DNA of 6,986 nucleotides from a virus (IMGVR_UViG_2690316285_000008:1-6986); one strand, 5' to 3'; shown: positions 1-6,986, counted from the stretch's first letter. A program made the numbers and translations. Notes: generated by a model from the sequence alone, not told the origin.

Positions 1-437
1 GCCCATACCGGCGGCTTACCATCCGGATACTGGATCTTGTTTGTAAAAACCTCGCTTTCAATAAATTTTTTTCCGTGACAGCAGGGGCACTGTTTTTTGC
101 TCGCCGCGCTACGGGCATAATCTTCAAACGCATACGAAGCCATAATACGCATCACTGCCGGTTTTATTTCTGCCGGGAGTTTTCTTAACGCCGCCACGCG
201 ATCACACCGACTGAGTGCATATTCTGTCAGCAATTCTGTTGCCCGCTCTCTGTCATTCATACTAATGCCCATTTTCCCAAGGAACGCAGAAACCCCCATC
301 TCAGCCCGATTCTGTGTCATGCCCTGCGCGGCCATCACATCAGTGATACTCAGCGCATCTTTCGACGTTGAGGCCGATGCATCAGTCAGGCCGGGGGATT
401 TTGGGGAGTAGTATTTCGGTAAATCTTCCAGTTTCAT
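1..437 (-). CDS. Late-gene antitermination protein Q (lambda Q family), N-terminal ~145 codons; 3' end runs off the window start
   Basis: ATG at 437..435 overlaps the rusA stop (ATGA at 437..434) and the frame stays open to position 1. Translation begins MKLEDLPKYYSPKSPGLTDASASTSKDALSITDVMAAQGMTQNR, which parallels the lambda Q N-terminus as I recall it (MRLESVAKFHSPKSP...DVMAAMGMAQ). A CPCCHG zinc-finger-like motif follows near the window edge. Not in the ORF track because it is truncated. Confidence 0.75.
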   Translation of the reverse strand, partial: MKLEDLPKYYSPKSPGLTDASASTSKDALSITDVMAAQGMTQNRAEMGVSAFLGKMGISMNDRERATELLTEYALSRCDRVAALRKLPAEIKPAVMRIMASYAFEDYARSAASKKQCPCCHGKKFIESEVFTNKIQYPDGKPPVW

Positions 438-814
438 TTTTTGACCTGCTCTTCATGCATTATGGGGTAAATCTTCACCCCCAGACGTCCACCAGATACT
501 GGCTGACCACGAACGATATTGATTTCATCAAACTGCTCATCGTCCATTAGCAACCCCGCATGCGTCAGCGCATCCAGCGGCGCTTTCAGAATATTGTCCA
601 GGTCACGGCGGCGCTTATCCGGTGGTTCTGCAATAATTTTTATTGCCAACCTTCCGGACAGGCTTAATTTCAGCCGCTGCTGGCGAACAATAAGCGCCAC
701 TGCCCGGCGATAACGCTCCCCGGCTTTTGATACAAAATATGTGCTGCCACGACGACGCCAGTAAGTGTTCACCGTCGGCGGGTAAGGTAAAACAAATTCT
801 ATGCGCTCGGTCAT
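434..814 (-). CDS. rusA: RusA Holliday junction resolvase (crossover junction endodeoxyribonuclease)
   Basis: 126-aa ORF with ATG at 814..812. Carries the RusA hallmarks PYPPTVNTYWR and PPDKRRRDLDNILKAPLDAL. Sits immediately 5' of Q, as in lambdoid nin regions. Confidence 0.9.
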   Translation of the reverse strand: MTERIEFVLPYPPTVNTYWRRRGSTYFVSKAGERYRRAVALIVRQQRLKLSLSGRLAIKIIAEPPDKRRRDLDNILKAPLDALTHAGLLMDDEQFDEINIVRGQPVSGGRLGVKIYPIMHEEQVKK

Positions 815-1873
815 TTATGCTTTCCACTTCAGAACACCCGAATTTCTCGCGTGCATTAAAAAACGAATCAGCAACAACAGCTGACTGCCGTGTTTCTCTT
901 CAAAATCTTTTACTCCGGCATGTAGTTCGTTACGGCATTTACGGCATAACGGAATAACAAACAAATCATCAGCCTTTGTTCCCATCCCTCCCAGTCCATG
1001 ACCAATGATGTGATGCGGATCATCTGCCTGATTGCCACACGTCATGCATTTCTGCGTTTTTACCCAGCGCGTGTATACAGGCATCTCTTCCCGTTGTGAT
1101 TTCTGGCGCTGGAGATACTGAGCCGGTGACTCCGGATCAACGGCAATGCTGACCACCGTCTTTTCCTGTGGTGGGTTCTGTTGCTGGTGGACGTGAGGCA
1201 GTAACGCAATATTTTTTGTGCGCTGCTTCAGTATGCTGGTGGCTGTCTGCTCTCCCGGTATGATGTCGCTTTCACTGTACACAGAGCGAATTTTTTCCGC
1301 ACGCAACCCCAGCGAACGACGTAATACCGCTTCCGGTAGCGCGTCCGCCACCTGATTGCGGACCGCCCACCAGGATAATTCAGCCAGAGATAATTCACGC
1401 TCCTGCGTACCGCTTATTGCGTGACCGATGACGTCAATCATCCATGCTGACAGGTTTTGATGAGCAAGTTGCTCGAGTGATTCGGATGTCTGGTCACGCA
1501 GCTGGTTGTCGCAGTGCCAGCACAACACCATTGCGCCGGTACCATAACGGTGAATGACGGTTTCGCTGTGATGATAATCGCCGTGTGGCCACTGGCAGGA
1601 TTTAATATGGCGCAACAGCCAGTCAGACAATGCACCAGCACCACCAGCAGCACGAATCACCCGTGCGTTACTGAAAAACGGCAGCAATGTTTTGTCTTCC
1701 ACCAGCGGCTGGCGAGCGGCAGGAACGACCCCGGACGGCAGATTACGCATGCTTTTTGGTTCCGGCTCCACCAGTATTCTGCCGTTATGGAATGCTGACA
1801 TTGATTCACGGCCTGGCTTAACGATAACCAGACCGAGTTCCGGTACCAGAACAGGTCGAAGTAATACCCGCAC
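815..1873 (-). CDS. YdfU-like (DUF968-type) prophage protein with a C-terminal HNH-like zinc-finger motif
   Basis: 352-aa ORF whose stop TAA (817..815) directly abuts the rusA ATG. C-terminal region has CMTCG...DDPHHIIGHGLGG...VIPLCRKCRNELH (CxxC / HH / CxxC spacing typical of HNH nucleases). The listed start at 1873 is GTG; an in-frame ATG lies at 1801..1799. Size and position match ydfU of Qin. Confidence 0.7.
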   Translation of the reverse strand: MRVLLRPVLVPELGLVIVKPGRESMSAFHNGRILVEPEPKSMRNLPSGVVPAARQPLVEDKTLLPFFSNARVIRAAGGAGALSDWLLRHIKSCQWPHGDYHHSETVIHRYGTGAMVLCWHCDNQLRDQTSESLEQLAHQNLSAWMIDVIGHAISGTQERELSLAELSWWAVRNQVADALPEAVLRRSLGLRAEKIRSVYSESDIIPGEQTATSILKQRTKNIALLPHVHQQQNPPQEKTVVSIAVDPESPAQYLQRQKSQREEMPVYTRWVKTQKCMTCGNQADDPHHIIGHGLGGMGTKADDLFVIPLCRKCRNELHAGVKDFEEKHGSQLLLLIRFLMHARNSGVLKWKA

Positions 1874-1874
1874 A

Positions 1875-2153
1875 TTACCTCCAGATCCGTTGCTGGAATG
1901 TGCGGGACGGACGCGTTGGCCGTTCGGAGTAAGGGAGCCTGACGGAGATTATCCAGTGACGGTAGTCGAGGCTAAGGGCTTTTTTAACCTCGCATCCGCG
2001 CCTGCGGTAACACTGAATGAGCCATTCGGCCTGTTCTTCAGTGCATGGGGGATGCTGGTACCAATCAGATTTAAATGCGTGAGAGCGCCGCCCGTGCCTG
2101 CTGGCAAAGACGGCTGAATTATCAGAATTGTGTAGTCTGGAATTTTGCGCCAT
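1875..2153 (-). CDS. Hypothetical prophage protein (92 aa)
   Basis: ATG at 2153..2151 preceded by GGAG with a 7-nt spacer. Stop TAA (1877..1875) overlaps an ATG at 1875..1873 (TAATG). No recognisable family. Confidence 0.45.
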   Translation of the reverse strand: MAQNSRLHNSDNSAVFASRHGRRSHAFKSDWYQHPPCTEEQAEWLIQCYRRRGCEVKKALSLDYRHWIISVRLPYSERPTRPSRTFQQRIWR

Positions 2154-2219
2154 CGGCTTTCTCCGGTGGCACAGTGTTACTCAACAGGGGTTCAGCCCTG
2201 CGCTGAATTGTAGATGAAT

Positions 2220-2480
2220 TCACTCATCTTCAAAAGCAGAAAAACCAGCCTTAATCCCAGCTTCTTTCAGAGACGGCAACGATGTGACAAATTCATTTGC
2301 ACGCGAAATAAAACCATCCGTCACAAGCCCATCCACAAAATGAATTAACGCAGCTCCACTCTTCCTTTGTTGAGACTGTAAACATTTAATACGGCAGTGG
2401 CTGACAATAGCGCCATTCTCAACGCGCACAGTATAGAGGCCATCTTCACTAAAAATTTCACGTAATTCTTCGATTTTCAT
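2220..2480 (-). CDS. Hypothetical prophage protein (86 aa from the ATG; the track shows 87 aa from an upstream TTG)
   Basis: ATG at 2480..2478 preceded by GGAAGGA with an 8-nt spacer. The track start at 2483 is TTG. Positionally equivalent to rem of Qin, but the sequence is not recognised. Confidence 0.5.
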   Translation of the reverse strand: MKIEELREIFSEDGLYTVRVENGAIVSHCRIKCLQSQQRKSGAALIHFVDGLVTDGFISRANEFVTSLPSLKEAGIKAGFSAFEDE

Positions 2481-2555
2481 CAACAGAATCCTTCCAGATA
2501 AATAGCACTCCCCTGTTCGGGGTCCATCCCTCTTCTCCCTGCGCGCTACTTAAGT

Positions 2556-2592
2556 ATTTTTGATTCTATTCCGGCACCATCTAAAACTTCAA
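2556..2592 (-). promoter_or_regulatory. Candidate sigma70 promoter for the 86-aa gene and downstream operon
   Basis: On the minus strand TTGAAG (2592..2587), 18-nt spacer, TAGAAT (2568..2563), lying between the hok-1 terminator and the 86-aa gene. Motif match only. Confidence 0.25.
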
Positions 2593-2606
2593 ACGCGTTG
2601 AAAATA

Positions 2607-2631
2607 AAAACAAAAACCCGCCGAAGCGGGT
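2607..2631 (-). terminator. Intrinsic terminator at the 3' end of hok-1 mRNA
   Basis: Minus-strand hairpin CCCGC-UUCG-GCGGG (plus 2617..2630) followed by a U5 run (plus-strand A-run 2612..2616). Confidence 0.5.
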
Positions 2632-2700
2632 TAAGTGTGGGTGCATTGAGGATGCCTGACCCATCAGAGGTGGCGAGGGATTTCTCCCCCGCCTGGTCTC

Positions 2701-2856
2701 TTACTCCTCAGGTTCGTAAGCTGTGAAGACAGCGACCTCCGTCTGGCCGGTTCGAATTCGTACCTCGCAGAGGTCTTTCCTCGTTACCAGTGCCGTCACT
2801 ATGACGGTTAAACAGATGACGATCAGGGCGATTAACATCGCCTTTTGCTGCTTCAT
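2701..2856 (-). CDS. hokD: Hok-family type I toxin (51 aa), hok-1
   Basis: Translation MKQQKAMLIALIVICLTVIVTALVTRKDLCEVRIRTGQTEVAVFTAYEPEE from ATG 2856..2854, preceded by AGGAG with a 9-nt spacer. Matches my recollection of HokD/RelF and the Hok fold (TM helix then conserved Cys). It is the C-terminal part of the 70-aa ORF in the track. Confidence 0.85.
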   Translation of the reverse strand: MKQQKAMLIALIVICLTVIVTALVTRKDLCEVRIRTGQTEVAVFTAYEPEE

Positions 2857-2913
2857 AGCCTGCTTCTCCTTGCCTTTCGGCACGTAAGAGGCTAACCTAG
2901 ATTTGCCGTTCAT
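2701..2913 (-). CDS. Mok-like reading frame (70 aa), an in-frame N-terminal extension of hok-1
   Basis: ATG at 2913..2911 with GAGG 8 nt upstream; frame is continuous with hok (MNGKSRLASYVPKGKEKQA-MKQQ...), as I recall for chromosomal mok/hok pairs. Confidence 0.5.
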   Translation of the reverse strand: MNGKSRLASYVPKGKEKQAMKQQKAMLIALIVICLTVIVTALVTRKDLCEVRIRTGQTEVAVFTAYEPEE

Positions 2914-2978
2914 AGATTGAGCCTCAGATTAATGTTAAGCGTCTTGCCGGACGCGTAATGTTAACTGGGGCTTTTCTC
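2904..2978 (+). ncRNA. Candidate Sok antisense RNA for hok-1
   Basis: Plus-strand promoter-like TTGCCT (2870..2875), 17-nt spacer, TAACCT (2893..2898). Long imperfect hairpin with outer stem GCCUCAG (2921..2927) and CUGGGGC (2965..2971), followed by UUUUCUC (2972..2978). Antisense to the mok SD and start. Boundaries are approximate. Confidence 0.4.
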
Positions 2979-3026
2979 TATCTGCCTTTTGGTGTTCATG
3001 CCTGAGACAGATAGCCTCAAGCACCC

Positions 3027-3060
3027 GCTGCAATTCTACTTAACTCTCCTTTTCCCGCAA
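3027..3060 (-). promoter_or_regulatory. Candidate hok-1 mRNA promoter
   Basis: Minus strand TTGCGG (3060..3055), 16-nt spacer, TAGAAT (3038..3033), predicted start near 3026. The predicted 5' end GGUGCUUGAGG (plus 3015..3025) is complementary, with a 1-nt bulge, to a 3' element at plus 2640..2651, like the hok tac/fbi pairing. Confidence 0.4.
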
Positions 3061-3067
3061 ACCGTTT

Positions 3068-3151
3068 TTATCCCCAGCGGCAAATCGAATACACCACCAG
3101 CGCCACCGCCATCGCAATTCCTACCGTTGTTAATGCTTCAGGCCAGGTCAT
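3068..3151 (-). CDS. Small hydrophobic peptide, 27 aa ([27 protein letters not shown]), copy 1
   Basis: ATG at 3151..3149 overlaps the 114-aa gene stop (ATGA). GGAGGA lies 9 nt upstream. A second copy at 4601..4684 differs by 4 synonymous and 1 conservative change. Below the ORF-track length cut-off. Confidence 0.55.
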
Positions 3152-3492
3152 CGTAAAATATCCTCCACGCTTATCAGTCCGTTCCGCTCCAGATAACTCA
3201 TCGCCTTATCCGGTAATTTGCAGTCTGGCTTCGCTTTTCTCAGTTGCCAGGTTAACTGCTTTACCAGCATGGTTAACTCATCGACCAGACGCTGATATCC
3301 CACTGGTTTGTATTCATGCAATTTACCGGCTGGCTCTGCTGCCAGCGATACCAGTGCGATTTCCAGAACAGCAATATCCATCTTATATGTGCGGATGATG
3401 TCATGGTCGATTGTGCCCGGTATGCACAGTCTCTGTGCTTCAATAGTCTCCTCTGCGTGAGCTATTAACTGCTCTCTGGTAAAAGTCGTCAT
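3148..3492 (-). CDS. Hypothetical prophage protein, 114 aa (MTT-start paralog family)
   Basis: ATG at 3492..3490 overlaps the 55-aa gene stop (ATGA) inside a conserved 48-bp junction. N-terminus MTTFTREQL and a VSLAAEP segment are shared with the 55-aa and 221-aa proteins. Confidence 0.65.
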
Positions 3493-3897
3493 GCCGTAGC
3501 CCCTTCTTGATATTTTTCAAACCAGAACACAACCGGCTCTGCTTCCAGCGATGCCAGCGCAATCCGTGCCAGTTCCATTTGTTCACCACGGGTAAGCCCG
3601 TTTTCAAGCGGGTTTTTAATGAACAATTCAATACGTTCTTTGGTAATAGTGGTCATGTGTTACTCCTTAACCCGCAGTGCTTTCAACTGATGAGGGGAAC
3701 AAAATCTTTTCATCAAACCCTGCATTCATATCATGAACAGCAACACACCAATCCATCGACGAACGATTATCAAGAGCCTCCATGATTTCATCCATGCGGC
3801 GTAGGTCATACAGGTAAATGCTTTTATCGCCAATGGTGTAAAAGCCAATTTTTTTCGGTGATGGATGAGGTGTACTGGCAATAGCGGACACTACCAT
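3274..3897. repeat. Direct repeat U, copy 1 (identical to 6363..6986)
   Basis: Visual alignment shows identity over 623 bp at a constant offset of 3089 bp. The left boundary falls inside the 114-aa gene; the right boundary is limited by the window end. Confidence 0.85.
3489..3656 (-). CDS. Hypothetical small protein, 55 aa ([55 protein letters not shown])
   Basis: ATG at 3656..3654 with GGAG 6 nt upstream. Ends with the same 16 residues as the HNH protein because both 3' ends lie in the conserved junction. Not in the ORF track (under 60 aa). Identical copy at 6578..6745. Confidence 0.55.
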
Positions 3898-3936
3898 TTG
3901 TTCTTTTTTTAAGCAGCCATCTGATGAATCGGGCAT
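3667..3936 (-). CDS. Hypothetical prophage protein (89 aa from ATG 3936; 76 aa if ATG 3897 is used)
   Basis: Protein-like translation (...KKIGFYTIGDKSIYLYDLRRMDEIMEALDNRSSMDWCVAVHDMNAGFDEKILFPSS). Neither ATG has a clear SD. The track's 133-aa version starts at a GTG inside the hok-2 3' UTR and is probably over-extended. Confidence 0.45.
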   Translation of the reverse strand: MPDSSDGCLKKEQMVVSAIASTPHPSPKKIGFYTIGDKSIYLYDLRRMDEIMEALDNRSSMDWCVAVHDMNAGFDEKILFPSSVESTAG

Positions 3937-3978
3937 TATCTGAACATAAAACACTATCAATAAGTTGGAGTCATTACC

Positions 3979-4000
3979 AAAAAAACCGCCGAAACGGGTT
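3979..4000 (-). terminator. Weak terminator-like element at the 3' end of hok-2 mRNA
   Basis: Degenerate counterpart of the hok-1 terminator: short stem followed by a U7 run (plus-strand A-run 3979..3985). Confidence 0.3.
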
Positions 4001-4070
4001 AAGTGCGGGTGCGTTGAGGATGCCTGACACATCAAAGGTGGCGGGAGATTACTCTCCCGCCTGGTCACTC

Positions 4071-4226
4071 TTACTCTCTAGATTCGTAGTCTACGAAAAC
4101 AGCGACCTCCGTCTGGCCGATTCGGATTCGTACCTCGCAGAGGTCTTTCCTCGTTACCAGTGCCGTCACTATGACGGTTAAACAGATGACGATCAGGGCG
4201 ATTAACATCGCCTTTTGCTGCTTCAT
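4071..4226 (-). CDS. Hok-family type I toxin paralog (51 aa), hok-2
   Basis: Translation MKQQKAMLIALIVICLTVIVTALVTRKDLCEVRIRIGQTEVAVFVDYESRE from ATG 4226..4224. Identical to hok-1 through residue 34, diverged in the C-terminal tail. Confidence 0.8.
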   Translation of the reverse strand: MKQQKAMLIALIVICLTVIVTALVTRKDLCEVRIRIGQTEVAVFVDYESRE

Positions 4227-4283
4227 AGCCTGCTTCTCCTTGCCTTTCGGCACGTAAGAGGCTAACCTACATTTGTGAGACAT
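4071..4283 (-). CDS. Mok-like reading frame (70 aa), an in-frame extension of hok-2
   Basis: ATG at 4283..4281; N-terminus MSHKCRLASYVPKGKEKQA then hok in frame. Confidence 0.45.
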   Translation of the reverse strand: MSHKCRLASYVPKGKEKQAMKQQKAMLIALIVICLTVIVTALVTRKDLCEVRIRIGQTEVAVFVDYESRE

Positions 4284-4348
4284 AGATTGGGCCTCAGATT
4301 AATGTTAAGCGTCTTGCAGGACGCGTAATGTTAACTGGGGCTTTTCTC
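4274..4348 (+). ncRNA. Candidate Sok antisense RNA for hok-2
   Basis: Same architecture as sok-1, offset by 1370 bp: hairpin GCCUCAG (4291..4297) / CUGGGGC (4335..4341) followed by UUUUCUC (4342..4348). The 5' single-stranded tail differs from sok-1 at several positions. Confidence 0.4.
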
Positions 4349-4564
4349 TGTCTGCCTTACAGTGACATACCCGAGGCAGACAGCCTCAAGCACCCGCAGC
4401 AATCTTACCGACACCGATAAGAAAACGCTATTTTTTATTGCCAGCACCATCTATCCAGGCTAGTTTATCTGCGTCAGAACGGCGCAATGCGCTCGCCTGA
4501 GATACGTTTACTTGCCATGGTAACAACAGGTAACGGCAATTGCTGTTTCTGTTTTGTTTCCTTC

Positions 4565-4595
4565 AAAAACCCCGGACCATCAATCCGGGGTTTTT
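4565..4595. terminator. Bidirectional intrinsic terminator
   Basis: Perfect 6-bp GC stem CCCCGG (4570..4575) / CCGGGG (4585..4590) with a 9-nt loop, flanked by A5 (4565..4569) and T5 (4591..4595). Lies just 3' of the 27-aa gene copy 2. Confidence 0.65.
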
Positions 4596-4600
4596 GTTTG

Positions 4601-4684
4601 TTAACCCCAACGGCAAATCGAATACACCACCAGCGCCACCGCCATCGCAATTCCTACCGTGGTGAATGCCTCAGGCCAGGTCAT
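4601..4684 (-). CDS. Small hydrophobic peptide, 27 aa ([27 protein letters not shown]), copy 2
   Basis: ATG at 4684..4682 overlaps the DUF551-like gene stop (ATGA). AGGAGG lies 7 nt upstream. Followed by the terminator at 4565..4595. Confidence 0.55.
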   Translation of the reverse strand: MTWPEAFTTVGIAMAVALVVYSICRWG

Positions 4685-5046
4685 TGATTCACCTCCTGCG
4701 GTGGTTCCGGTAGCGGCATCCAGTGAGTTGAGCTCTCTACTTCAACGCCGTCTTTGTCCACAAAAGCCATCTTATTCCCGCCACGAGTGGGGCAAAAAAC
4801 CTTATCCCAGGAACCGGGGAATACATTCCCGAGATCATCGAGAAGAATCACATCGCAATATTCAGCAGGAACTGCATCACTACAGCTTATCCAGCCAGCC
4901 GGAGCTACCGGAGAGTTGCCAGCCTTACGCATGGCCATTTCCACGATTTCAACCATATCTCCTGGTGGAATTTTACAAAGTTGCCCAATACATTTCTGCT
5001 GCCTGGCATATTCGAGAATGTGCTCCAGTTTGGTTCGATTAATCAT
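4681..5046 (-). CDS. DUF551-like phage protein (121 aa)
   Basis: ATG at 5046..5044 overlaps the 221-aa gene stop (TAATG); GGGAG lies 7 nt upstream. C-terminal THWMPLPEPP and internal Trp/Gly pattern match my recollection of the DUF551 family. Confidence 0.65.
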   Translation of the reverse strand: MINRTKLEHILEYARQQKCIGQLCKIPPGDMVEIVEMAMRKAGNSPVAPAGWISCSDAVPAEYCDVILLDDLGNVFPGSWDKVFCPTRGGNKMAFVDKDGVEVESSTHWMPLPEPPQEVNQ

Positions 5047-5711
5047 TATTTATCTCCCTTAAGCATGGCAGCGCGGCAGGCGTTCCAGCCATCAACATAA
5101 TCAAACGTATTACTATCGTTTGGCCCGATTTCATCCGGCACTATCGGCTCTGGTTGGATAGTGACGTTGGCAAAGGCAGCACGCAAACCGGTTTTAATTT
5201 CTTCGATTTCATCAGAGCCAAGCGATGAATCTGACAGTGCGTGATGGAATGCGTAAGCCATGTCGTCGTTTACTGCAACCGGCACTGCCGGCGCTGCGTA
5301 AAGCGGTGTTATATCTGCCCGAAAATCACATGCTTTATGCAGTCGTACCCAACACTCAACTTCCGCTTTGTCAAAATATATAGCAGTGAACGTATTAGAT
5401 TCCTGGTCAACTTGAGTAAACGTCACCTTCCACGCTACAGCTACGGCTTTCCATCCATCAGGTTGTCGCATTCGCGGGGCAGCATAAAGCTCATGCATTC
5501 CATCAGGCAGCGAGTGACCCACATACTCACCGAACCCGTCAATACACATGCCCCCATCTTCAACAATGCATTCCGCTACAGGCTCTGCTTCCAGTGATGC
5601 CAGAGCGATAAGCGCCAGTTCACGAATTTCACCGCCGTCTATATCGTCAATATCATCGCGGCCAGAAATGTTAGCCAGCCATTGCAGTCGCTCTTTGGTA
5701 ATAGTGGTCAT
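5046..5711 (-). CDS. Hypothetical prophage protein, 221 aa (MTT-start paralog family)
   Basis: ATG at 5711..5709 overlaps the HNH stop (ATGA) in the conserved junction, with AAGGGG 7 nt upstream. N-terminus MTTITKERL and [12 protein letters not shown] are shared with the 55-aa protein. LYAAP occurs twice internally. Confidence 0.7.
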   Translation of the reverse strand: MTTITKERLQWLANISGRDDIDDIDGGEIRELALIALASLEAEPVAECIVEDGGMCIDGFGEYVGHSLPDGMHELYAAPRMRQPDGWKAVAVAWKVTFTQVDQESNTFTAIYFDKAEVECWVRLHKACDFRADITPLYAAPAVPVAVNDDMAYAFHHALSDSSLGSDEIEEIKTGLRAAFANVTIQPEPIVPDEIGPNDSNTFDYVDGWNACRAAMLKGDK

Positions 5712-6073
5712 GCCGTAGCCCCTTCTTGATATTTTTCAAACCAGAACACAACCGGGTCAGATTTCATTTCAACCAATCCCATACGAACCAGCGCTTTGCC
5801 TTTCCCGGACGCAAGGAATTCACGACGACCATCACTGATAATTCGTCGATAATCTTCCAGGCTACTGCAATGCTTGTGCAGATTGCATGGGTGGCATGCT
5901 GGTACCATGTTGGATATATCGTCACGTTCCTGGTGAAGCATATTTCCATCAAAACGAATGACCGGTTTTACATGGTCTGCATGCCACTTTTCGCCAAGTT
6001 CGCAGCCGCAATAAGCGCAGCGACCACCGAACTTCATGCGCAGTTCTGCACGTTGTTTTTTCGTCAGTGCCAT
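5708..6073 (-). CDS. HNH endonuclease (121 aa)
   Basis: ATG at 6073..6071 with AAGGAAAG 6 nt upstream. Motifs CAYCGC, HADHVKP, N...PACHPCNLHK fit the HNH zinc-finger nuclease pattern. The track's 151-aa version starts at a TTG. Confidence 0.85.
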   Translation of the reverse strand: MALTKKQRAELRMKFGGRCAYCGCELGEKWHADHVKPVIRFDGNMLHQERDDISNMVPACHPCNLHKHCSSLEDYRRIISDGRREFLASGKGKALVRMGLVEMKSDPVVFWFEKYQEGATA

Positions 6074-6074
6074 A

Positions 6075-6293
6075 TCAGCTTTCCTTATACGGATTAATTT
6101 TATTGTGCAGTGTGTTGAATGACGCCCATACCACGTCGTTATACAATTCAATAACTGGCTCAATTATTTTTCCGATTATCCAGACAAAAATTAGCGGGGA
6201 TATCGGTGTCATCAACACGATAAACAGAATGAGAAACAGGAATTCTGTTGTTCTACTCTTTCGCGGATATTTTTTTCTAAATAATGTAACCAT
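6075..6293 (-). CDS. Candidate small membrane protein (72 aa) in an AT-rich segment
   Basis: ATG at 6293..6291; Lys/Arg-rich N-terminus then a hydrophobic stretch FLFLILFIVLMTPISPLIFVWIIGKII. Stop is 1 nt before the HNH start. GC content of 6090..6300 is clearly lower than the surroundings, so chance hydrophobicity is possible. Confidence 0.4.
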   Translation of the reverse strand: MVTLFRKKYPRKSRTTEFLFLILFIVLMTPISPLIFVWIIGKIIEPVIELYNDVVWASFNTLHNKINPYKES

Positions 6294-6296
6294 TCA

Positions 6297-6581
6297 TTAC
6301 CGCCCTTTCGAGCGGTCTCCTGATGATTTGAGGGTGCAGAAATCCCTCCGGTTAAGGATTAATAACTCATCGACCAGACGCTGATATCCCACTGGTTTGT
6401 ATTCATGCAATTTACCGGCTGGCTCTGCTGCCAGCGATACCAGTGCGATTTCCAGAACAGCAATATCCATCTTATATGTGCGGATGATGTCATGGTCGAT
6501 TGTGCCCGGTATGCACAGTCTCTGTGCTTCAATAGTCTCCTCTGCGTGAGCTATTAACTGCTCTCTGGTAAAAGTCGTCAT
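6297..6581 (-). pseudogene. Truncated/chimeric copy of the 114-aa gene
   Basis: First 73 codons are identical to 3148..3492; identity ends at the repeat boundary (6363) and the frame runs 21 more codons into unrelated AT-rich DNA before TAA at 6299..6297. Confidence 0.5.
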
Positions 6582-6745
6582 GCCGTAGCCCCTTCTTGAT
6601 ATTTTTCAAACCAGAACACAACCGGCTCTGCTTCCAGCGATGCCAGCGCAATCCGTGCCAGTTCCATTTGTTCACCACGGGTAAGCCCGTTTTCAAGCGG
6701 GTTTTTAATGAACAATTCAATACGTTCTTTGGTAATAGTGGTCAT
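6578..6745 (-). CDS. Hypothetical small protein, 55 aa, identical second copy
   Basis: Lies in the exact repeat (offset 3089 bp from 3489..3656), with the same RBS and ATGA overlap. Confidence 0.5.
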
Positions 6746-6755
6746 GTGTTACTCC

Positions 6756-6986
6756 TTAACCCGCAGTGCTTTCAACTGATGAGGGGAACAAAATCTTTTC
6801 ATCAAACCCTGCATTCATATCATGAACAGCAACACACCAATCCATCGACGAACGATTATCAAGAGCCTCCATGATTTCATCCATGCGGCGTAGGTCATAC
6901 AGGTAAATGCTTTTATCGCCAATGGTGTAAAAGCCAATTTTTTTCGGTGATGGATGAGGTGTACTGGCAATAGCGGACACTACCAT
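6756..6986 (-). CDS. Second copy of the 89/76-aa hypothetical protein; 5' end may lie beyond the window
   Basis: Identical to 3667..3897. The window ends exactly on the ATG equivalent to 3897, so the equivalent of the 3936 start would be outside the window. Confidence 0.45.
   Translation of the reverse strand: MVVSAIASTPHPSPKKIGFYTIGDKSIYLYDLRRMDEIMEALDNRSSMDWCVAVHDMNAGFDEKILFPSSVESTAG

Follow-up and report, generated by a model that had tools for sequence, protein, structure and literature searches.

Within the window analysed here (IMGVR_UViG_2690316285_000008:1-6986, i.e. a whole stretch of 6,986 nt recorded as viral DNA), what looks like the same prophage module occurs twice in tandem, each copy being made of a conserved unit (U), a variable cargo, a 27-aa ORF and a hok/sok locus. 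The question raised is whether this array represents a cassette-exchange hotspot, as an earlier note had suggested, or whether the two modules were brought together in some other way. The repeats themselves were confirmed by self-BLAST, U, the 27-aa ORF and hok/sok each being present twice, and so was the nin-region setting, the locus lying between the replication genes and the RusA/Q genes of a lambdoid prophage.

The repeated segments are not equally similar. U (3274-3897) is 100 % identical over 624 bp to 6363-6986, the second copy reaching the window's final base, and each copy holds 32 bp of IS600 together with a gene lacking its 5' end. The hok/sok blocks (2612-3034 vs 3980-4403) are 90.4 % identical and the 27-aa ORF blocks (3064-3151 vs 4596-4684) 93.3 % identical. 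What had been taken as one flank formed by the 27-aa ORF and hok corresponds to two separate homology blocks, the gap between the ORF and the sok match being 41 bp in module 1 and 205 bp in module 2. The cargo sizes were as previously given, i.e. 126 bp (3148-3273) and 1678 bp (4685-6362).

Comparison with complete Shigella sonnei chromosomes divides the window into three pieces, each colinear with these chromosomes. Piece 1 (1-3927) is the prophage remnant located at the ompW site (A locus), with 99.87 % identity to S. sonnei CP064376; it carries the Q, RusA, DUF968, Rem, hokD/sok, 27-aa, 114-aa and 55-aa genes, a truncated 87-aa gene and an IS600 end, and breaks off 62 bp inside an IS600 whose full-length form is present in S. 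sonnei. Piece 2 (3928-6362) comes from a second S. sonnei locus, the prophage remnant of the ttcA/Rac site (B locus; 1-7 mismatches over 2435 bp). It begins 52 bp inside an IS1 that is likewise full length in S. sonnei, and comprises the IS1 end, hok/sok, the 27-aa ORF, and the DUF551, 221-aa, HNH and DUF4014 genes. Piece 3 (6363-6986) repeats 624 bp of piece 1 and is 100 % identical to the ompW-site locus of CP064376. In three chromosomes carrying both loci, these are 120-147 kb apart and in the same orientation; they are separate defective prophages, with one module per locus in all S. sonnei chromosomes examined. In those chromosomes IS600 interrupts the A locus and IS1 lies on both sides of the B locus, the full elements occupying the very insertion sites found in the window. 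The source strain differs at a few sites from every reference compared.

Both joints between the pieces are blunt. The first (3927|3928) links IS600 to IS1, and the second (J2, 6362|6363) links the B-locus intergenic spacer (6294-6362) to codon 73 of the 114-aa gene. No microhomology was present at either joint (0 nt at 6362|6363), no restriction site fitting the joints was seen by eye, and no repeat boundary explaining the break at 6362 was found in the B locus among the loci compared; the B-locus match ends exactly at 6362 and the reference sequence goes on. The 82 bp separating the first U copy from the second hok/sok block are no neutral spacer and consist of the IS600 and IS1 ends. The former is the terminal 62 bp of IS600 (3866-3927), from the end beside the 3' end of the transposase gene, and finds 100 % matches among the annotated IS600 ends of about 3,000 E. 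coli genomes (also in locus L007). The latter is the terminal 52 bp of IS1 (3928-3979), adjoins the hok2 terminator and matches the end of an annotated IS1A (locus L006). A further 32 bp of IS600 (6955-6986), identical to 3866-3897, close the window. Each element is represented by one end (62 bp and 52 bp), and not by a transposase gene with both terminal inverted repeats.

The arrangement was searched for in 5,426 complete E. coli genomes, phage and plasmid records, GTDB species representatives, IMG/VR and JGI metagenomes, and neither the whole window nor either joint was matched in any of these sets. None of the 5,426 genomes covered at least 80 % of the window or of either joint, the joint strings had no counterpart in the genome, viral or metagenome collections, and the tandem arrangement was seen in none of the long contigs of relatives examined (roughly 30-37). 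Exact look-up in the gene index gave no record of the joint-spanning ORFs of 94 and 133 aa, nor did the protein collection contain the 94-aa fusion protein. One plasmid match (H166), with a span like that of the query, was rejected as it consists of a single A-type module.

The window is a composite of paralogous segments that a Shigella sonnei-like chromosome carries in two different defective lambdoid prophages. The three-piece structure, the IS fragments, the bluntness of the joints and the lack of this arrangement elsewhere are direct observations, whereas the origin of the join is inferred; we consider it most likely non-biological, a reading to which we give a probability of about one half. 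The join could be a chimeric read or a contig join made at an assembly end, IS1 and IS600 being elements that break assemblies. As in chimeric contigs or reads formed at repeat-bounded contig ends, three colinear pieces from two distant loci are bluntly joined, the breaks sit a short way into IS ends, earlier sequence is repeated in the final piece, and the window terminates 32 bp into IS600. Both IS fragments also have the same shape, i.e. unique flank followed by a few tens of bases of IS end. Ligation or concatenation would account for joins that are blunt and lack microhomology, which favours an artefact; E. coli and Shigella are not known to have a classical end-joining pathway. Against this stands J2: simple contig concatenation fits poorly because this joint lies neither at an IS nor at any repeat boundary found, unlike what is expected of chimeric contig ends. 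Moreover, the distances into the IS ends (62, 52 and 32 bp) fit no single k-mer size, and the few-site differences of the source strain from every reference leave room for a lineage-specific rearrangement. A de Bruijn short-read assembler outputs a joint only if reads span it, i.e. if the joint is real.

A private in vivo rearrangement would be nearly as likely as an artefact and, although short of an even chance, is the most serious alternative. According to this alternative, the arrangement exists in the source strain: a 2.4-kb hok/sok block would have been copied, independently of homology, from the Rac-site remnant into the ompW-site remnant 120-147 kb away, with a 654-bp target duplication (U plus IS600 end), either by a large tandem duplication remodelled by deletion or by template switching during replication. 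An operon-like string with two hok/sok loci would result. The common orientation of the loci suits such a route, as a duplication joint (IS1-IS600) and a deletion joint (114-aa gene-DUF4014 spacer) give exactly the order seen; the sequence is clean, ORFs are intact on either side, and the joints must be present in the reads if the assembly is a short-read one. The genomic background is also favourable, Shigella genomes being rich in IS-associated rearrangement, with IS1 and IS600 expansion driving their decay (PMC7373316). The window shares with this decay its IS600 and IS1 insertion sites, but 62-bp and 52-bp stubs joined internally are not a product of transposition or of homologous recombination between IS copies; IS-mediated events normally act on whole copies or at the precise tips of the element rather than at internal sites. 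Two independent blunt joints without microhomology would in addition be needed within 2.4 kb, the U copies show zero divergence, and none of the collections searched contains the arrangement. If the joints are real, they would document one homology-independent transfer of a gene block between resident prophages, in a host lacking classical end joining, a case of modest interest to the study of prophage evolution. Whether artefact or event, the window is an assembly chimera or a rearrangement scar and not a cassette-exchange site, and neither origin involves an array mechanism.

The cassette-exchange hotspot itself, in which U on one side and the 27-aa ORF with hok on the other would be fixed flanks of an exchangeable accessory or anti-phage cargo, the array displaying two occupancy states, is largely refuted and we hold it to be very improbable. 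Part of the comparison with related prophages went in its favour: these prophages do carry different genes upstream of the 27-aa ORF and hok, and the variable segment keeps its relative position, as in known prophage defence or accessory hotspots. U, on the other hand, is no conserved flank; it belongs to the A-type gene set, is contiguous with the 114-aa gene wherever found and is absent upstream of B-type cargo, where DUF4014 follows a different upstream gene. In ArgO145 the 27-aa ORF is present without hok. Both U copies carry the same IS600 scar and truncated gene, and the two modules are separate loci in complete genomes; the tandem array, two remnants 120-147 kb apart brought together by blunt joints, is no evidence for a hotspot. 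The cargo boundaries had been placed at, or a few bases from, start/stop overlaps; this holds on the 27-aa side, with ATGA at 3148-3151 and 4681-4684, but fails on the U side, where the boundary of the left module (3273|3274) interrupts the 114-aa gene at codon 73/74 and that of the right module (6362|6363) lies 69 bp upstream of the DUF4014 start. Defence cargo was not found either, PADLOC detecting in the window nothing beyond weak generic similarity to HNH; the cargo consists of DUF551, DUF4014, HNH and uncharacterised ORFs. Compared with defence or accessory hotspots, the locus has neither a conserved flank pair nor recognised defence genes, and incidental inspection brought no recombinase, att-like sites or dedicated recombination sites to notice.

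Lambdoid early and nin regions are mosaics exchanged at short conserved gene-boundary sequences (the modular theory). A linker of 66-77 bp, in whose translation a 15-residue stretch is followed by MTT(F/I)T, recurs on the minus strand at 3471-3547, 5690-5766 and 6560-6636 (direct-repeat family D3, 91-100 % identical; 95 % over 66 bp by BLAST). It is common to three gene boundaries, 55aa|114aa, HNH|221aa and HNH|114aa (loci L001, L003 and L028), so that it flanks unrelated genes that occur in alternative combinations in relatives, i.e. 55aa-114aa in the A type, HNH-221aa-DUF551 in the B type and HNH-114aa in ArgO145. This recurrence also counts in favour of a hotspot. Among the 5,426 complete E. 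coli genomes, 1,080 have sok with the 27-aa ORF, 571 the 27-aa ORF with the 114-aa gene, and two the 27-aa ORF with this DUF551 allele. Judged from these sequence comparisons, the variation upstream of the 27-aa ORF and hok, through conserved linkers, is ordinary lambdoid mosaicism, which the window resembles in the ATGA overlaps of its small ORFs, its linkers and the alternative gene sets of its relatives. Mosaicism accounts for variation between prophages, not for the two blunt joints that create the tandem look.

Finally, a simple tandem duplication, for which even similarity and one novel joint are expected, is rejected because identity is uneven (100 % for U vs 90-93 % for the hok and 27-aa blocks) and there are two novel joints, and there is scarcely more to be said for an old duplication, in which an ancestral unit of U, cargo, 27-aa ORF and hok would have doubled, diverged and had the cargo of one copy replaced. 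Although the modules are head to tail and have gene types in common, this reading is refuted because these identities give no single duplication age and a separate chromosomal locus matches piece 2 at 99.9 %; IS fragments at the joint also speak against it.

The composite reading carries a caution for IS-rich genomes such as those of Shigella, in which juxtaposed paralogous prophage remnants may pass for organised cassette arrays. The parts themselves are of kinds already described (hok/sok loci, small DUF551, DUF4014 and HNH ORFs, conserved gene-boundary linkers), and the working ones are probably two ordinary hok/sok type I toxin-antitoxin loci along with small prophage ORFs. In such type I systems, an antisense RNA blocks the translation of a small membrane toxin. 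Locus 1 (2612-3034, minus strand; hokD allele; PF01848, E = 3e-23) comprises hok at 2701-2856, a 70-codon mok-like ORF at 2701-2913, the leader/sok region at 2851-3026 and a terminator at 2615-2632. Locus 2 (3980-4403, minus strand; PF01848, E = 2e-21) comprises hok at 4071-4226, a mok-like ORF, also of 70 codons, at 4071-4283 and the leader/sok region at 4221-4395. Both 51-aa toxin ORFs belong to the Pfam family HOK_GEF; the first product is identical to RefSeq HokD WP_000813254.1 and the second is one residue off WP_000813259.1. The structured leader, with the sok antisense gene and the mok start, was recognised in both copies by Rfam RF01794 (112 bits for locus 1 and 118 bits for locus 2, the gathering score being 59), the two matches covering the full model length on the minus strand (2851-3026 and 4221-4395). 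An antisense Sok RNA would be expected in both, the matches themselves lying on the hok strand. The mok-like ORFs start upstream of hok, to which they are predicted to be coupled, and their equivalents are annotated MokW in phage records. The terminator scan gave a clear site in copy 1 and listed none for copy 2, in which IS1 sequence directly follows a shortened terminator T-run. Other Rfam matches (isrK at the hok1 terminator, STnc30, PsrR1 and others) were below the gathering score and were discarded as chance matches or terminator hairpins. Among prophage counterparts, i.e. hokD of Qin and hokW-sokW, the type I locus of the Sakai prophage Sp5 (PMC8621323), the same 51-aa Hok, mok-like ORF and RF01794 leader are found, and nothing notable distinguishes the loci of the window, except that copy 2 adjoins IS1.

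The assignments of hok, DUF551, HNH and DUF4014 were borne out by Pfam. All remaining genes are on the minus strand. The window start cuts a Q-type antitermination gene, whose 5' part (1-433) is colinear with an annotated antitermination protein gene (loci L001 and L004) and with a PF03589 gene in S. sonnei. It is followed by the genes for a RusA Holliday-junction resolvase (434-814; PF05866, E = 2e-16) and a YdfU-like DUF968 protein (815-1873; PF06147, E = 3e-62), the exact protein being encoded in complete S. sonnei chromosomes, and by a Rem-like 87-aa ORF (2220-2483; phrog_340, with PF27490:Rem on the counterpart gene in loci L009 and L014). The intact 114-aa gene (3148-3492; phrog_660, E = 8e-43) encodes a hypothetical protein in locus L001; its second copy retains the first 73 codons (6363-6581), fused to the spacer as a 94-aa ORF (6297-6581). 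The 55-aa gene (3489-3656; phrog_3323, E = 1e-19) recurs as a 100 % repeat at 6578-6745. Of an 87-aa gene that IS600 has cut short, the 3' 66 codons remain (3667-3865) and are also repeated at 100 % (6756-6954); they match only positions 21-87 of phrog_1714, and the alignment with the intact gene (L001 and L004) breaks at 3865; the apparent 76-aa ORF at 3667-3897 borrows its start codon from the IS600 end. Piece 2 contributes the DUF551 gene (4681-5046, 121 aa; PF04448, E = 3e-19), a 221-aa gene of no assigned function (5046-5711; phrog_60 and phrog_12449) with an exact protein in the S. sonnei B locus, an HNH endonuclease gene (5708-6073, 121 aa from the annotated ATG; PF01844; phrog_2118, E = 4e-57; annotated in locus L003) and the DUF4014 gene (6075-6293, 72 aa; PF13198, E = 1e-25).

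The 27-aa hydrophobic ORF, taken from the ORF list, lies on the minus strand at 3068-3151 and 4601-4684. The copies are four synonymous changes and one non-synonymous change (L7F in copy 2) apart. The ORF had no match in Pfam, NCBIfam or PHROG, and its sequence has an exact match in the protein collection, labelled 'prophage protein'. A cluster look-up that placed the peptide with unrelated DUF551 proteins was set aside as a clustering quirk. This conserved, unannotated, membrane-like ORF represents a small annotation gap rather than a discovery. In the extra spacer between its second copy and sok2 lies a terminator-like hairpin with a 13-bp stem (4564-4596).

The window is a three-piece composite and not an array made by cassette exchange, and its tandem structure is a scar or an artefact. 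All of its genes lie on the minus strand. Self-BLAST returned a 624-bp repeat (U) with 100 % identity between 3274-3897 and 6363-6986, i.e. up to the final base of the window, together with 90.4 % identity between 2612-3034 and 3980-4403 and 93.3 % between 3064-3151 and 4596-4684. Short repeats of 66-77 bp (91-95 %) are found at 3471-3547, 5690-5766 and 6560-6636. The right-hand cargo encodes DUF551, HNH and DUF4014 proteins and a 221-aa protein without known function. Self-BLAST and family searches thus bore out the repeats and cargo sizes described in the earlier note; the observed structure is largely confirmed, and the kinds of element involved are already known.

Each piece was traced to Shigella sonnei. 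Using the exact DUF968 protein, the A locus (a prophage remnant at the ompW site) was found in complete S. sonnei chromosomes, e.g. CP000038.1; window positions 1-3927 are colinear with CP064376 (99.87 %), in which the match runs on into a full-length IS600 adjoining ompW. A search with the exact 221-aa protein revealed another locus in these chromosomes, the B locus, whose neighbours are an integrase fragment and a PF01171 gene; this is the ttcA/Rac position. Positions 3928-6362 are colinear with this locus (1-7 mismatches in 2435 bp); there, the 52 bp of IS1 present in the window are part of a full-length IS1, and the reference sequence runs on beyond 6362. Positions 6363-6986 are the A locus again, at 100 %. 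The S. sonnei chromosomes hold one module per locus, and in three chromosomes with both, the A and B loci share their orientation and are separated by 120-147 kb; none of the contigs examined had A and B modules side by side. The second module also occurs, intact, in E. coli FDAARGOS_944 and VL40 (99.8 %), the match ending exactly at 6362 and at 3979/3980.

Several smaller features were noted along these loci. Of 10 S. sonnei loci compared, 9 carry a 250-bp deletion corresponding to 2143-2392 (5' part of the Rem-like ORF plus the adjoining spacer), a stretch that the window and CP064376 retain. At the 3' end of rusA (450-507), the window differs from every S. sonnei locus by four clustered SNPs that alter three residues, and its RusA is a protein common in E. 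coli; this looks like a small patch of conversion, or else like an allele that is derived in the S. sonnei reference genomes. At 3238, 36 bp away from the 3274 boundary of U, the window departs from all S. sonnei references by a single SNP, which could be chance or could mark the edge of a bubble in the assembly graph. On the ompW side of one S. sonnei A locus (L017, 5227-5721), a paralogous DUF4014 block lies inverted beside IS1; its identity to window 6047-6320 is 88 %, and it suggests an earlier IS-bounded inversion within this prophage remnant.

hok2 is separated from the A-type part of U copy 1 by 114 bp (3866-3979) that consist of two insertion-sequence stubs, the opening 32 bp falling within the 624-bp repeat. 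Positions 3866-3927 are the terminal 62 bp of IS600 (100 %), which also aligned to locus L007 and are annotated as IS600 in about 3,000 genomes; 3928-3979 are the terminal 52 bp of IS1, adjoining the hok2 terminator. Homology of U to intact relatives breaks off at 3865, which makes its last gene an 87-aa gene cut short by IS600, with an apparent start codon within the IS600 sequence. This scar is identical in both U copies. The "76-aa ORF" of S. sonnei assemblies begins inside the IS600 end (3866-3897 and 6955-6986) and is a fusion pseudo-ORF whose opening ~10 codons are IS-derived. Cargo boundaries had been placed at or near start/stop overlaps; on the U side this does not hold, the boundary (3273/3274 and 6362/6363) falling within codon 73/74 of the 114-aa gene and yielding, at U copy 2, a 94-aa fusion ORF.

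The pieces meet at two joints. At J1 (3927/3928), IS600 position 62 meets an internal IS1 position; at J2 (6362/6363), a spacer 69 bp upstream of DUF4014 meets the middle of the 114-aa gene. No microhomology was found at either. Searches of complete E. coli genomes, phage and plasmid records, species-representative genomes, IMG/VR and JGI metagenomes yielded neither joint; the gene index lacked the joint-spanning ORFs, and a collection of 15 billion proteins likewise lacked the 94-aa fusion. We favour a chimeric join as the origin of the composite (probability roughly 0.5), because on each side of J1 the flank runs just a few tens of bases into an IS end, because the window stops 32 bp into IS600, and because both joints are blunt; to our knowledge these bacteria lack classical end joining, which we also counted for a chimeric join. 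A private in-vivo rearrangement, through one duplication joint and one deletion joint or through template switching, is a somewhat less probable alternative: the orientation of the A and B loci is consistent with it, the sequence is clean, a short-read graph assembler can produce such joints only if they are present in the reads, and J2 lies at no repeat that could be found.

The interpretation in the earlier note is supported only loosely, in that this prophage region is mosaic: the genes found upstream of hok and the 27-aa ORF do vary, a mosaicism of the kind well known from lambdoid early/nin regions. Among 5,426 complete E. coli genomes, sok occurs with the 27-aa ORF in 1,080, the 27-aa ORF with the 114-aa gene in 571, and the 27-aa ORF with the window's DUF551 allele in 2. 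The gene orders that occur are 55aa-114aa, HNH-221aa-DUF551, HNH-114aa and a double DUF551, and the boundaries at which they diverge are marked by a common linker, made of the end '...[15 protein letters not shown]' and the next start 'MTT(F/I)T'. PADLOC detected no defence genes.

In hok/sok systems, mok/hok translation is repressed by an antisense RNA, and Hok is a small toxin of the inner membrane. Each ~420-bp repeat is a hok/sok locus: the two match Rfam RF01794 at 112 and 118 bits (gathering score, 59), and Pfam HOK_GEF matches both hok copies. Hok1 has the same sequence as RefSeq HokD WP_000813254.1; Hok2 differs from WP_000813259.1 at one residue. Among the parts of the window, a supported mechanism is limited to these two loci, whose activity here is predicted. 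The homologous hokW-sokW of Sp5 helps lysis upon induction (PMC8621323).

The conserved hydrophobic 27-aa ORF (3068-3151 and 4601-4684) received no family assignment in family-profile searches, and its copies differ by four synonymous and one non-synonymous changes. It is unannotated in the RefSeq loci examined, is named "prophage protein" by some submitters, and has a stop at codon 3 in one S. sonnei genome (L009). In phage ArgO145 (L028, 1866-2926), what follows the 114-aa and 27-aa genes is not hok but another toxin/antitoxin pair, in divergent orientation. Because of this different pair, and because the spacing between the 27-aa ORF and sok in the window is 41 bp in one module versus 205 bp in the other, the ORF and hok do not form one unit. 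As ArgO145 illustrates, the position downstream of the ORF can hold different toxin-antitoxin modules. In module 2, the interval between the ORF and the sok region (4396-4600) has ~164 extra bases, which include a hairpin with a 13-bp stem (4564-4596) resembling a bidirectional terminator.
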